From: Lytechinus variegatus
Lineage: Eukaryota
NCBI RefSeq assembly: GCF_018143015.1
Contig: NC_054751.1
Location: 28,513,438-28,577,437 of the forward strand
Direction: 5' to 3'
Length of the DNA: 64,000 bases
Position numbers and translations under genes: made by a program. Positions within the stretch are counted from its first letter, which is position 1, and every line of letters starts with the position of its first letter. A model generated the notes under the pieces. It was given only the letters and a program-made list of their open reading frames with translations, made no database searches and was not told where the DNA came from. Positions 20,720-49,000 of this stretch are shown piece by piece.

Positions 20720-21850
20720 TTTATTGTCTCACCTGCGAAGCAAAGTGAGACTATAGGCGCCGCTTTTCCGACGGCGACGGCGGCGGCGTCAACATCAAAT
20801 CTTAACCTGAGGTTAAGTTTTTGAAATGATGTCATAACTTAGAAAGTATATGGACCTAGTTCATGAAACTTGGCCATAAGGTTAATCAAGTATTACTGAA
20901 CATCCTTTTAGAGTTTCATGTCACATGACCAAGGTCAAAGGTCATTTAGGGTCGATGAACTTAGACCATGTTGGAGGAATCAACATCGAAATCTTAACCT
21001 GAGGTTAAGTTTTTGAAATGTCATCATAACTTAGAAAATATATGGACCTAGTTCATGAAACCTGGACATAAGGTTAATCAAGTATCACTAAACATCCTGC
21101 ATGAGTTTCACGTCACATGACCAAGGTCAAAGGTCATTTAGGGTCAATGAACTTTGGCTGAATTGGGGATATCTGTTGAATTCCCATCATAACTTTGAAA
21201 GTTTATGGATCTGATTAATGAAACTTGGACATAATAGTAATCAAGCATCACTGAACATTTTGTGCAAGTTTCAGGTCTCATGATTAAGGTCAAAGGTCAT
21301 TTAGGGTCAATGAACTTTGGCCAAATCAGGGGTATCTGTTGAATTACCATCATAACTTTGAAAGTTTATTGGTCTAGTTCATTGAACTTGGACATTAGAG
21401 TAATCAAGTATCACTGAACATCCTGTGCTCATTTCAGGTCACATGACCAAGGTCAAAGGTCAATGAACTTTGGCCGAATTGGGTGTATCTGTTGAATTAC
21501 CATCATAACTTTGAATGTTTATGGATCTGATTCATGAAACTTGTACATAAGAGTAATCAAGTATCACTGAACATCCTGTGTGAGTTTCAGGTCACATGAT
21601 CAAGGTCAAAGGTCATGTAAGGTCAATGAACTTTGGCCATGTTGGGGTTTTTTGTTGAATAACCATCATATCTCTGTAAGTTTATTGGTCTAGTTCATAA
21701 AAAGTGGTCTAGTTCATTAAACTTGGACATAAGAGTAACCATGTATCACTGAACATCTTGTGCGAGTTAGAGTAGTATTCATAGTCAGCACTGCTGCTAT
21801 ATTGAACTGCGTGATGCAGGTGAGACGGCCAGAGGCATTCCACTTGTTGT
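20720..21850 (+). mobile_element. TIR-bounded non-autonomous element, copy A (TIRs GTCTCACCTGC...GCAGGTGAGAC). Carries about 6 tandem satellite units of 160-190 bp, each with an AGGTCAAAGGTCA motif.
   Basis: Near-identical to copy B at 22395-23510. Internal tandem periodicity shown by repeating ...catgaaacttggacataa...caaggtcaaaggtcatttagggtcaatgaactttggcc... Confidence 0.65.
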
Positions 21851-21970
21851 GATAAGTTGTTAAAATTTTCTGTTCATTTAATTTTGATTAATTATATTAC
21901 AAAAATTTAACAGCTAATTTGATACCCAACATGTCTTTCTCGTACTCTTGTGCTTTTCCCATGCTTACAG

Positions 21971-22166
21971 CCCGACCCACTTTTCCAGCGAACCTCGGCA
22001 GCTTTCGACGAGGGCGGGTCCTTCGGTCTCCTCCTCAACCACCTCCAATGCCGAGACGACGGCTGTGAGCTGCTCCTCGATTCTAATACGATCATCAATA
22101 ACGAGGAGGAACCATCAAAATCAGAGAAAGGCATACAGACCATGGTTGACATGAGTGAAATAACAG
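21971..22166 (+). CDS. NCAPH: NCAPH exon 7 (PDPLFQRTSAAFDEGGSFGLLLNHLQCRDDGCELLL...VDMSEIT), 196 nt, ends in phase 1
   Basis: Acceptor tgcttacag| and donor |gtaatg. Matches human [34 protein letters not shown]. Confidence 0.9.
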
Positions 22167-22394
22167 GTAATGCAAGATTAAAGATAAACACCAGTGGTAG
22201 CAACAACCTCAAAATGAGTTCGAACAGAGTCCAATTAAAATATTACTTAAGTGTTTGTATGTATGAATAAAAAAAATATGTGCCAAATATCTCTGGAAGA
22301 ACATGCGTCATTTCTGAGACATTAGCACAATAAGCACAGAATTCCATCAAATGTCTGGTATTTTCCAAGAAATATTAATAAACAGTCCCACATA

Positions 22395-23510
22395 TGCTTT
22401 TTGTCTCACCTGCGAAGCAAAGTGAGACTATAGGCGCCGCTTTTCCGGCGGCGGCGGCGTCAACATCAAATCTTAACCTGAGGTTAAGTTTTTGAAATGA
22501 TGTCATAACTTAGAAAGTATATGGACCTAGTTAATAAAACTTGGCCATAATGTTAATCAAGTATTACTGAACATCCTATTAGAGTTTCATGTCACATGGC
22601 CAAGGTCAAAGGTCATTTAGGGTCAATGAACTTAGACCATGTTGGAGGAATCAACATCGAAATCTTAACCTGAGGTTAAGTTTTTGAAATGTCATCATAA
22701 CTTAGAAAATATATGGACCTAGTTCATGAAACTTGGACATAAGGTTAATCAAGTATCACTGAACATCCTGCATGAGTTTCATGTCACATGACCAAGGTCA
22801 AAGGTCATTTAGGGTCAATGAACTTTGGCCGAATTGGGGATATCTGTTGAATTCCCATCATAACTTTGAAAGTTTATGGATCTGATTCATGAAACTTGGA
22901 CATAATAATAATCAAGCATCACTGAAAATTCTGTGCAAGTTTCAGGTCTCATGATTAAGGTAAAAGGTCATTTTGGGTCAATGAACTTTGGCCGAATCAG
23001 GGGTATCTGTTGAATTACCATCATAACTTTGAAAGTTTGTTGGTCTAGTTCATTAAACTTGGACATTAGAGTAATCAAGTATCACTGAACATCCTGTGCG
23101 TGTTTCAGGTCACATGACCAAGGTCAAAGGTCAATGAACTTTGGCCGAATTGGGTGTATCTGTTGAATTACCATCATAACTTTGAAAGTTTATGGATCTG
23201 ATTCATGAAACTTGTACATAAGAGTAATCAAGTATCACTGAACATCCTGTTCGAGTTTCAGGTCACATGATCAAGGTCAAAGGTCATGTAAGGTCAATGA
23301 ACTTTGGCCATGTTGGGGTTTTTTGTTGAATAACCATCATATCTCTGTAAGTTTATTGGTCTAGTTCATAAAAAAGGGAAATAAGAGTAACCATGTATCA
23401 CTGAACATCTTGTGCGAGTTAGAGTAGTATTCAAAGTGAGCACTGCAGCTATATTGAACCGCGTGATGCAGGTGAGACGGCCAGAGGCATTCCACTTGAT
23501 TGTGTTAGTC
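22395..23510 (+). mobile_element. Same element family, copy B, in direct orientation with copy A. The two copies flank NCAPH exon 7.
   Basis: Same start (tgtctcacctgcgaagcaaagtgagactataggcgccgc) and same end (gcaggtgagacggccagaggcattccacttg) as copy A. Confidence 0.65.
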
Positions 23511-47246: not shown

Positions 47247-47351
47247 GTTAACAAGATTGACATACAATACGCCCGCACAGCTAAGAGGATGGATGTTAAA
47301 AAGCTTAAGACGCACATGTGGGGCTTCTTGACGAAGCCAGAATCAGACAAG
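47247..47351 (+). CDS. NCAPH: NCAPH exon 15 ([35 protein letters not shown])
   Basis: Acceptor tcttcag| and donor |gtgagc. Very strong match to human [29 protein letters not shown]. Separated from exon 14 by a 14-kb intron containing the LTR element. Confidence 0.92.
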
Positions 47352-47402
47352 GTGAGCAAACAATTTTACAGAGGTTGTTCAGAATTGTAGTGGTAATTTA
47401 TT

Positions 47403-48354
47403 GTCTCGCCCACCAGAGGTGAAGGCAAGACTTAGGGATCCAAATGTCGTCCATCCGTCACAAACCTGTAATGACACATAACTCCACAACCGTAAGTCGC
47501 TTTTTAACCAAACTTGGATGGTAAATGGACTTTGGGGACCTGCATGTTATGCTGCAGTCGGAGGTCACATGGTAAGGTCAAAGGTCATTTTCAGGTCAAC
47601 ATTAAAGTTTACATGCAAGACTCTCTTATGACACCTAACTCGGCAACCACATGTCGCTTTTCAATCAAACGTGGATGGTAGATGGACTTGGGGGACCTGC
47701 ACATTATGTTGCAGTCGGAGGTCACATGGTAAGGTCAAAGGTCATTTTCAGGTCAACGTTAAAGTTTACGTGCAGGACACCTAACTCCGCAACCGTAAGT
47801 CGCTTTTCAACCAAACTTGGAGGGTAAATGGACTTGGGGGACCTGCATGTTACGCTGCAGTGGGAGGTCACATGATATGATCAAAGGTCATTTTCACGTC
47901 AACGTTAAAGTTTACATGCAAGACTCTCTTATGACACCTAACTCCGCAACCATAAGTCGCTTTTCAACCAAACTTGGATGGTAGATGTACTTAGGGGACC
48001 TGCATGTTATACTGCAGTCGGAGGTCACATGGTAAGGTCAAAGGTCAATTCAGGTCAACATTAAAGTTAACATGCAAGACTCTCTTATGACACCTAACTC
48101 TGCAACCGTAAGTTACTTTTCAACAAAACTTAGATGGTAGATGTACTTAGGCGACCTGCATGTTATGCTGCTGTCGGAGGTCACATGCTAAGGTCAAAGG
48201 TCTTTTTCAGGTCAACATTAAAGTTTACGTGCAAGGCTCTTATGACAAGTGTTATTTCATCCAAGTCATTTCACAATGAAGTTTCATTATAATTCTCTTG
48301 CGTGCCCTCGCAAATCACGATATTTCTGGTTATTTTTCATAAGTGGGCGAGACA
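47403..48354 (+). mobile_element. Related TIR element (GTCTCGCCCAC...GTGGGCGAGAC) containing about 6 tandem units of roughly 150 bp with AAGGTCAAAGGTCA
   Basis: 11-bp TIRs. Internal tandem repeats of ...gacctgcatgttatgctgcagtcggaggtcacatggtaaggtcaaaggtcattttcaggtcaac... Lies in NCAPH intron 15. Confidence 0.6.
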
Positions 48355-48722
48355 CAAAATTGCTTTTGCCTTGTTGCTATTTGTACAGCTATCTTGTATT
48401 GAGCAAACATATGTTGCTTCTTTCTGACAAGATCATCATATAAAGATGCGTATCATATAAAGATGCGTAGTTGTAGTACACACCAAATTCATGATAAAAT
48501 CTGAAAGACCATAGTTAATCATCGTTACATCATTGTAGATCTGGATCTTGTTAAGTTACATGTACATAAACTAAACTTTGTGAAATGAAAGCTATCTTGA
48601 AAAACGACCACACTGAAGATTTCCAGCACAGATAAAGCACATATGCCATGCTTACTCAGATTTCTTCCGGAATCAGGTGGCACATATTTTTCATTTATGC
48701 ATCCAGACGCTGCATCATGTTT

Positions 48723-49000
48723 GTCTCGCCTGCAATGTAGAGCAAGGCTTTAAACATAGGTGCCACTTTTCTGACAGCAGCGACGGCGGTGGCACGGTTG
48801 TCAAAATTGAAATCTTAACAAAGGTTATAATTTTGAAATGTCATCATAACTAAAAAAGTATATGGACCTGTTTCATGAAACTTGGACATAATGGTAATCA
48901 AGTATCACTGAACATCCTTTCCAAGTTTCAGATCACATGACCAAGGTCAAAGGTCAATTAACTTAGACCATGTTGGGGTAATCAACATTGAAATCTTTAG
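48723..49000 (+). mobile_element. Partial third copy of the satellite-carrying TIR element family (begins gtctcgcctgcaatgtagagcaagg)
   Basis: Start resembles the copy A/B start. One satellite unit with ccaaggtcaaaggtcaattaac is present. Confidence 0.45.

Follow-up and report, generated by a model that had tools for sequence, protein, structure and literature searches.

The 64,000-nt stretch of the Lytechinus variegatus genome analyzed here (NC_054751.1, positions 28,513,438 to 28,577,437, referred to as the window) contains a gene for condensin subunit 2 (NCAPH), whose introns carry four short transposon-like elements, A to D. Their tandem units contain a motif that corresponds to the textbook recognition site of several nuclear receptors, a direct repeat of two AGGTCA half-sites with a 1-nt spacer (DR1). 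We describe the host gene and the elements, compare the elements with relatives in other hosts and consider how the motif might have spread.

Condensin gene and motif-bearing elements

The joined translations of the + strand exons match the Pfam family Cnd2 (condensin complex subunit 2) with E = 5.7e-38, and the nearest named proteins found in a protein search with the product of the host gene are sea urchin ones. The Lytechinus pictus protein aligns to the exons of the window with 95-100% identity in five of the seven matched exons and with 83-86% in the other two. By these matches, a bivalve origin, which the pearl/BIV160-like repeat anatomy would suggest, is rejected in favor of a Lytechinus-like urchin. 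The splice sites of the NCAPH exons listed in Table 1 are normal. All four elements are intronic and inserted in sense orientation, and C and D reside in a common intron. The initial annotation had placed the motif arrays in intronic transposable elements, and this is borne out, as transposon ends bound the arrays and exons flank every element.

Table 1. Coordinates of NCAPH exons, elements A to D and their motifs (position 1 is the first nucleotide of the window).
Feature	Position	Strand	Remarks
NCAPH exon	20165-20236	+	
Element A	20724..21848	+	Complete; 2 × 192-bp, 3 × 163-bp and one partial unit
Exact AGGTCAAAGGTCA in element A (n = 5)	starts 20932, 21124, 21287, 21450, 21603 (span 20932..21615)	+	
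Example of the ~40-nt box, AGGTCACATGATCAAGGTCAAAGGTCATGTAAGGTCAA	21589..21628	+	One per unit
NCAPH exon between A and B	21965..22165 or about 21971-22166	+	
Element B	22401..23501	+	Second copy of the five-unit element of A, on the other side of the exon
Exact AGGTCAAAGGTCA in element B (n = 4)	starts 22603, 22795, 23121, 23274 (span 22603..23286)	+	
Decayed motif in element B, AGGTaAAAGGTCA	22958	+	1 mismatch
NCAPH exon	26056-26241	+	
NCAPH exon	47244-47351	+	50 nt upstream of element C
Element C	47401..48375	+	Five 157-bp units of a different monomer family
Exact AGGTCAAAGGTCA in element C (n = 3)	starts 47575, 47732, 48035 (span 47575..48203)	+	
Example of the second box, AAAC(T/G)TGGA, unit reads AAACGTGGA	47672..47680	+	53 nt upstream of the core
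Decayed motif in element C, tGaTCAAAGGTCA	47878	+	2 mismatches
Decayed motif in element C, AGGTCAAAGGTCt	48191	+	1 mismatch
Element D	48721..~48997	+	Left end, microsatellite and one unit; 3'-truncated, diverged relative of A/B
Exact AGGTCAAAGGTCA in element D (n = 1)	48944..48956	+	
NCAPH exon	49632-49799	+	

Thirteen exact copies of the 13-mer AGGTCAAAGGTCA were found in the window, all of them on the + strand and confined to the four elements, while not a single match occurred in all of 100 dinucleotide-preserving shuffles. The repeated motif is therefore real, and the 13-mer fits the DR1 consensus perfectly, as had been proposed. The number of perfect motifs had been put at 15 or more, which is an overcount, as three further units carry decayed copies. 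The arrays themselves had been located correctly, but most positions were off by 1 to 7 nt, and the site assigned to 48190 exists as a decayed copy with one mismatch rather than as a perfect one. It had also been stated that every unit carries tgaccAAGGTCAAAGGTCAtt. This sequence is present three times, and tgacc followed by the motif six times. The additional inverted half-site that was deduced from it is restricted to part of one family and is missing from the 157-bp family, because the sequence there reads tggtAAGGTCA. Within any given element, AGGTCA hexamers occupy one strand only. On this motif-bearing strand, their density reaches 12.6/kb inside the elements vs. 0.25-0.36/kb outside of them.

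Tandem Repeats Finder delimits arrays at 20789-21702 and 22460-23420, with periods of 192 and 163 bp, and a third one at 47471-48247 with a period of 157 bp. Elements A and B share 96.9% identity over ~1100 nt, their five units match one to one, and the order of the unit variants is the same in both. Based on this identity and the one-to-one correspondence, A and B represent a single five-unit element that is present twice. Element D is a diverged and truncated relative of A and B, and the alignment of its left end with that of A scores 39 vs. 12.5 in shuffles. Element C represents a second family. Consequently, the 13 sites amount to two or three independent lineages and not to 13. The number of motifs is the result of tandem amplification inside a master element, followed by transposition of whole elements. 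With 1 to 6 units, transposon ends and a location inside introns, the arrays differ from the long, homogeneous arrays of classical satellites. As a side observation, A and B lie in direct orientation and enclose one coding exon (about 21971-22166) at distances of ~120 and ~235 nt. This pair (20724-23501) is a ready substrate for recombination, which would delete the exon.

The left end TTGTCTC(A/G)CC is found in all four elements and the right end CTTG(A)TT in the complete elements A, B and C. Following the initial TT, the 5' subterminal repeat reads GTCTCACCTGC in A and B, GTCTCGCCCAC in C and GTCTCGCCTGC in D. The 5' terminus of element A is TTGTCTCACCTGC with the inverted partner GTGAGAC, its 3' repeat is GCAGGTGAGAC, and the element ends in ...CCACTTGTT. 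The corresponding parts of element C are TTGTCTCGCCCACC at the 5' terminus and GGGCGAGAC followed by CAAAATTGCTTTTG at the 3' terminus, with the end ...CCTTGTT. For A and B, a 5' hairpin GTCTCAC...GTGAGAC is predicted at -7.5 kcal/mol (z = -4.6; 0/200 shuffles as good), while the hairpin of C is weaker (z = -1.5). Elements A, B and D contain a (GACGGC/GGC)n microsatellite, whereas that of C is a degenerate GTCC-type sequence, GTCGTCCATCCGTC. The 5' subterminal repeat has a complementary 3' counterpart, namely GCAGGTGAGAC in A and B and GGGCGAGAC in C, and D is truncated at this side. TT is found at both termini of the elements, and the sequence of this locus shows no duplication in their flanks. 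Taken from end to end, the pattern TTGTCTC(A/G)CC ... GG(T/C)GAGAC ... CTTGTT is homologous across both families.

According to this anatomy, elements A to D are putative non-autonomous Helentron-type transposons (HINE), i.e., DINE-1-like elements of the pearl/Tsp kind. The anatomy of HINE was defined by Thomas et al. (PMC4067079) and was also found in Crassostrea gigas (PMC7492417). Named reference kinds are Cg_HINE of C. gigas, pearl of C. virginica, DTC84 of Donax trunculus and Tsp of S. purpuratus. The Tsp family, described in 1985, was assigned to the HINE group in several studies (PMC4067079; Satovic and Plohl, PMC3879986; PMC7492417), and its likeness to A to D is one of description. 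Features in common with HINE are a 5' subterminal repeat next to which an inverted copy is located, the microsatellite, the 3' subterminal repeat, an ordered series of tandem monomers with lengths of 140-190 bp (PMC4067079; PMC7492417; PMC3879986), a putative T-rich insertion site, short conserved boxes common to divergent monomer families, and the frequent location in introns. Differences exist in the weak 3' hairpin, in the Lytechinus host and in the monomers, which are unrelated to the compared oyster monomers except for the boxes. Helentron proteins were reported from both S. purpuratus and L. variegatus (PMC4067079, supplement). In the window, neither an open reading frame (ORF) for the Rep/helicase/endonuclease of an autonomous Helentron nor any Rfam family was detected.

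Conserved boxes and their relatives in other hosts

The consensus sequences of the 163-bp and 157-bp monomers have a block of ~40 nt in common, AGGTCACATG(2-3 nt)AAGGTCAAAGGTCA(4-5 nt)(A/G)GGTCAA, with ~85% identity. It consists of three or four AGGTCA-like hexamers. In both families, the core is preceded at a distance of exactly 53 nt by a second box, the 9-mer AAACTTGGA, which is embedded in TTTCAA(C/T)CAAAC(T/G)TGG in the 157-bp family. The third common stretch is the short sequence C(A/C)TAACT. Once the AGGTCA-like hexamers were removed, the local alignment between the 163-bp and 157-bp monomers was no better than that of shuffles, and outside of the boxes both families are saturated with change. 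The earlier statement that two otherwise different units have a core in common is thus correct. The two families are indeed not the same sequence, but they are not unrelated either, as indicated by their homologous ends and the second box. The common core is explained by shared descent within one transposon lineage, and the families represent old relatives with conserved boxes, rather than two families that acquired the motif separately. In units of A, B and D (e.g., at 21592-21599), the sequence GTCACATGA, which represents an M-box-like E-box (TCACATGA type), is located directly upstream of the DR1.

Units A4, B4 and D1 lack 11 bp (GGTCATTTAGG) and yet retain an intact AGGTCAAAGGTCA. This slippage deletion recreates a perfect DR1. 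Conservation applies to the ~40-nt block rather than to the DR1 itself. The box behaves like a short hexamer run subject to slippage, and the perfect DR1 is one recurrent state of it. Between A and B, 30 differences were counted in 1100 aligned positions. Five of them are located in the cores (200 nt), where 5.5 would be expected, and one in the DR1s (65 nt), where 1.8 would be expected, in a test of low power. There is no sign of a protection of these sites by the host since the insertion of A and B, as core substitutions occurred at the background rate in this low-power comparison. Conservation of the box is visible only between element lineages. The initial annotation had argued for selection or templated spread of the motif instead of chance. 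Templated spread fits these observations, while purifying selection after insertion finds no support in the low-power test.

A 22-nt core pattern was searched in contigs of metagenomes, viruses and prokaryote genome bins. It was found in 23 metagenome contigs, which represent ~8 loci or families and resemble the window only in the core, and there was no match in the viral contigs. Seven contigs of prokaryote bins, mostly of one Saccharibacteria bin, also contained the pattern and were set aside as period-7 GTCAAAG repeats in unrelated contexts. In the Candidatus Saccharibacteria bin, each of five contigs (L024, L026-L029) exhibits GTCACATGTCAAAGGTCAAAGGTCAAATGTCA-like period-7 repeats, which may constitute a dispersed repeat of bacteria or an artefact of binning.

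Among the metagenome matches, several JAAUX contigs contain compact elements with the architecture known from A to D, composed of a stretch of T, AGCCCACCTGTGC..GCACGGTGGGCT, (TGTC)n, a block rich in AGGTCA and GGCAGGTGGGCTCACGTCAACGTCAAGTT. In these, the block lies 20-100 nt from the 3' subterminal repeat. One JAAUX locus carries a 174-bp tandem array with AGGTCACATGTTCAAGGTCAAAGGTCAAGGTCAAAT. No match was obtained between the JAAUX contigs and the loci of oyster, pearl oyster and sea cucumber described below. Single GTCACATGTCAAGGTCAAAGGTCA copies occur in JGI metagenome contigs (L003, L006, L013, L016, L020; L007, L017, L022) that cover the same locus in several samples. In L007 and L022, the motif is intact in two diverged repeat copies with differing flanks.

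The condensin loci of C. virginica (L031), Pinctada imbricata (L033) and a sea cucumber (L032) provide a less biased sample. In C. virginica, AGGTCAAAGGTCAAGGTCA (DR1+DR0) occurs once per ~150-bp unit of a short array beside a (GACA/GACG)n microsatellite, and the AGGTCA density is 18/kb inside the elements vs. 0.37-0.47/kb outside. The Pinctada element, which was obtained without reference to the motif, contains TAGGTCAAGGTCACAAGGTCAAA in every 147-bp unit, with the hexamers spaced as AGGTCAAGGTCACAAGGTCA (DR0+DR2) and a density of 16/kb inside the elements vs. 0.28-0.40/kb outside. No such multimers were present in the sea cucumber condensin locus. The spacing of the half-sites thus differs by host, as the urchin elements combine a DR1 with hexamers at variable distance. 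An AGGTCA-multimer block is the sole stretch that is common to five monomer families from four hosts.

Similarities to the bivalve elements extend to the ends and to the second box. The 5' end of the Pinctada element, GTGTCGCCTGCGAAGCATAGCGACACTTAGG, matches that of element A at 26/31 positions, which was equaled in 0/1000 shuffles, and ACTTAGGGATC is common to the left ends of element C and the Pinctada element. The 3' palindrome of the latter is clear (CATTCC-TT-GGAATG). In the same Pinctada locus, a copy without repeats, consisting of ends and microsatellite (7877-8024), adjoins the array-bearing copy (8025-9105) head to tail. The exact 16-mer TTTCAACCAAACTTGG is found in the urchin 157-bp monomer (47640-47690 and equivalents) and in three C. 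virginica arrays with periods of 153-157 bp (L031, 1-1062, 13330-13797 and 26547-27364), a score reached by 0/300 shuffles. These three arrays are devoid of the AGGTCA block. TTTCAACCAAACTTGG is a second box common to two phyla. In bivalves, the BIV160/Cg170 repeats were described to retain “two well-conserved sequence motifs” in otherwise divergent monomers (PMC5139131). They resemble the urchin arrays by description, in that ~160-bp monomers are tied to pearl/HINE elements. C. gigas CL1 exhibits no significant similarity, and no AGGTCA multimers are present in those of its arrays that were searchable. The urchin arrays are possible members of this group.

Spread and possible roles of the hexamer box

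The motifs are probably best understood as a conserved box in the tandem monomers of non-autonomous Helentron-type transposons that was spread by amplification and transposition. As the sequence shows, monomers were amplified in tandem inside a master element, and whole elements then transposed. The four elements, inserted into the introns of NCAPH in sense orientation, are each built from a T-rich end, a 5' subterminal inverted repeat with its pairing copy, a microsatellite, one to six ~160-bp monomers and a matching 3' repeat. The hexamer box changes by slippage, and no other part of the monomer is retained between diverged families and in similar bivalve elements. Retention might be a consequence of better propagation of box-bearing lineages or of module exchange between arrays, whereas selection on the condensin gene probably does not keep the box. 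As the best reading of these data, the box is an old and recurrent feature of this transposon lineage.

Several observations weigh against this interpretation. The 3' hairpin expected of HINE is weak in all copies, as the palindrome of A and B is limited to GCC-AGA-GGC (z = -0.16) and that of C (CAAAA-TTGC-TTTTG) folds no better than shuffles. Within a family, the core is at least as variable as the rest of the monomer. Relative to the left end and the microsatellite, the hexamers of the two bivalves are on the opposite strand compared to the urchin. AGGTCA multimers are absent from five other 153-184 bp arrays in the C. virginica locus and from the searchable CL1 arrays of C. gigas. Because these other oyster arrays lack the block, it can be considered recurrent in this kind of element, but not required. 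In addition, the metagenome examples are biased since they were found via the motif itself, which leaves the two bivalve loci as the unbiased sample.

It is conceivable that the arrays are working response elements for receptors of the COUP-TF, HNF4, RXR or TR2/4 type and act as enhancers, silencers or receptor sinks, to the benefit of the host gene or of the transposon itself by means of open chromatin or germline activity. We regard this as rather unlikely. The nuclear-receptor reading is one of resemblance, here between 13 perfect sites and the consensus, and the hexamers were kept between families while the rest of the monomer diverged beyond recognition. The varying orientation of the box would be tolerable for a site that is read as double-stranded DNA, and binding of receptors to the box in this form is plausible. 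Given the perfect DR1 consensus and the extended half-sites for monomeric receptors that the box also holds (AAAGGTCA, CCAAGGTCA), the box would offer DR1-binding receptors a site of high affinity, and binding in vitro would be expected. Older studies reportedly showed that SpCOUP-TF and SpSHR2 bind a DR1-type element at the CyIIIb actin gene. Maternal sea urchin COUP-TF represses this gene (PMC4227642), and precedents for repeat-borne sites exist in the HNF4alpha sites of Alu (PMC3252374) and in the HSF-1 sites distributed via Helitrons in Caenorhabditis (PMC6927752). On the other hand, spacing is not kept in related elements (DR1, DR1+DR0, DR0+DR2), and this variability argues against a role that is specific for a DR1-bound dimer. 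Decayed copies occur within the arrays, and the sites show no excess conservation since the insertion of A and B, albeit in the low-power test. Moreover, many other transcription factor consensus sequences fit into these 40 nt, among them the NBRE AAAGGTCA, the SF-1/ERR-type site CCAAGGTCA and the M-box-like site TCACATGA. With several factor sites legible in one box, a motif match alone only weakly constrains the interpretation.

A role in transposition was also considered. The hexamer run might be a cis site bound by the Helentron Rep/helicase, similar to iterons near a rolling-circle origin, which we judge to be most improbable. Iterated short direct repeats on a single strand of an element would suit such a site, as would the conservation of the run between families, which equals or exceeds that of the subterminal repeats, and its position 20-100 nt from the 3' subterminal repeat in the JAAUX compact elements. 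However, in C. virginica and Pinctada the block points the other way with respect to the element ends. It is missing from many arrays of this kind and is part of internal repeats of varying number, so that its distance from the ends is not fixed. The variable orientation disfavors a strand-specific role in rolling-circle transposition. The core, folded as single-stranded DNA, yielded no stable structure, and a hairpin role of the box is therefore unsupported. That the run is functionless and microsatellite-like, generated by slippage and homogenization and common by descent or chance convergence, appears very unlikely as well. The 11-bp in-register deletion in A4, B4 and D1 is indicative of slippage, a “microsatellite-like motif” was noted in that portion of the CvA pearl repeats which varies little (PMC3879986), period-7 GTCAAAG repeats also occur in contigs binned as bacteria, and the inserted copies A and B show no constraint. 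Yet neutral descent accounts neither for a 40-nt stretch of ~85% identity in monomers that otherwise lack any detectable similarity nor for the 35- to 50-fold enrichment of one hexamer in elements of three hosts from two phyla.

Horizontal transfer of Helentron families among marine invertebrates, which would be compatible with the other explanations, could underlie the sharing between urchin and bivalves; we strongly doubt that it does. The agreement between the urchin and Pinctada ends (26/31), the presence of ACTTAGGGATC in element C and the Pinctada left end and the exact 16-mer TTTCAACCAAACTTGG in the urchin 157-bp monomer and three C. virginica arrays are in line with such an event, but the match is limited to short boxes and the remaining element sequence is unrelated. 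This looks like old divergence under constraint and not like recent transfer. Going beyond the interpretation of the box as a conserved transposon feature, it seems quite unlikely that the AGGTCA block and the TTTCAACCAAACTTGG box together form an ancient functional module in the internal repeats of Helentron-derived elements that was maintained or exchanged repeatedly in bivalves and echinoderms, which would recruit nuclear receptors or a different hexamer-binding factor and would have seeded thousands of receptor-binding clusters in the genomes of marine invertebrates.

HINE, pearl and Tsp carriers, conserved boxes in their monomers and the spreading of transcription factor sites by repeats are already known. 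In human Alu, binding of HNF4alpha and transactivation were demonstrated by protein-binding arrays, chromatin immunoprecipitation and reporter assays (PMC3252374). As in the urchin, a non-autonomous repeat multiplies DR1-type motifs across the genome. The carrier of the Alu sites, however, is a short interspersed element and its sites are mostly imperfect, whereas the urchin sites reside in a rolling-circle DNA transposon and are sequence matches. Similarly, Helitrons of Caenorhabditis were shown to bind HSF-1 and to affect gene expression (PMC6927752), and here, too, a rolling-circle family scatters clustered consensus sites near or inside genes. These carriers are canonical Helitrons, unlike Helentron derivatives with ~160-bp arrays. 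A description of the box of these elements as a run of nuclear-receptor half-sites was not found in the searchable literature, in which the 13-mer appears together with “transposable element” only in the Alu work (PMC3252374). The identification of the conserved box as a putative receptor half-site run in echinoderm and bivalve elements alike would thus be a modest addition and a lead for further work.

As they stand, the elements belong to an ordinary transposon family. If the block were functional, this would explain why short conserved boxes persist in otherwise unrelated monomers, a question left by the bivalve literature. It would also mean that a transposon family distributes nuclear-receptor-type sites in echinoderm and mollusc genomes, comparable to Alu and HNF4 or to Helitrons and HSF-1. 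Scans of urchin or bivalve genomes for DR1 sites would be dominated by these copies, which should be masked or treated separately.

Further features of the window

A fifth element of the same type was considered at 5300-6500 and rejected because its inverted ends differ from those of A to D. This region holds an element of another type (5787-6375), which has inverted ends of ~27 nt (TGATGACGTCATCTAGGCGCCATTTTG / CAAAATGGCGCCTA..ATGACGTCATCA) and occurs once in the window. AGGTCA-like hexamers abound in the interior of this element, and one such stretch, AGGTCAAGGGTCA at 5887, is a DR1 with one mismatch. Another DR1 with one mismatch, located at 32981 on the - strand, is part of exon coding sequence. 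The ORF of 190 aa at the end of the window gave only two weak matches.

Within the NCAPH gene, a 148-bp unit is repeated ~4.8 times in tandem at 32917-33702. It comprises the 3' part of an NCAPH exon, the splice donor and the start of the intron, and each copy retains the reading frame and the CACAAGgt donor. As 148 is not a multiple of 3, in-frame splicing of all copies is impossible. The large intron of the gene harbors a long terminal repeat (LTR) retrotransposon at about 39630-46410. It has direct repeats (39755-40054 and 45742-46041) with 100% identity over a length of at least 300 nt and looks like a very young insertion. An ORF of 452 aa on the - strand (42865-44223) encodes an rve and an integrase zinc-binding domain.

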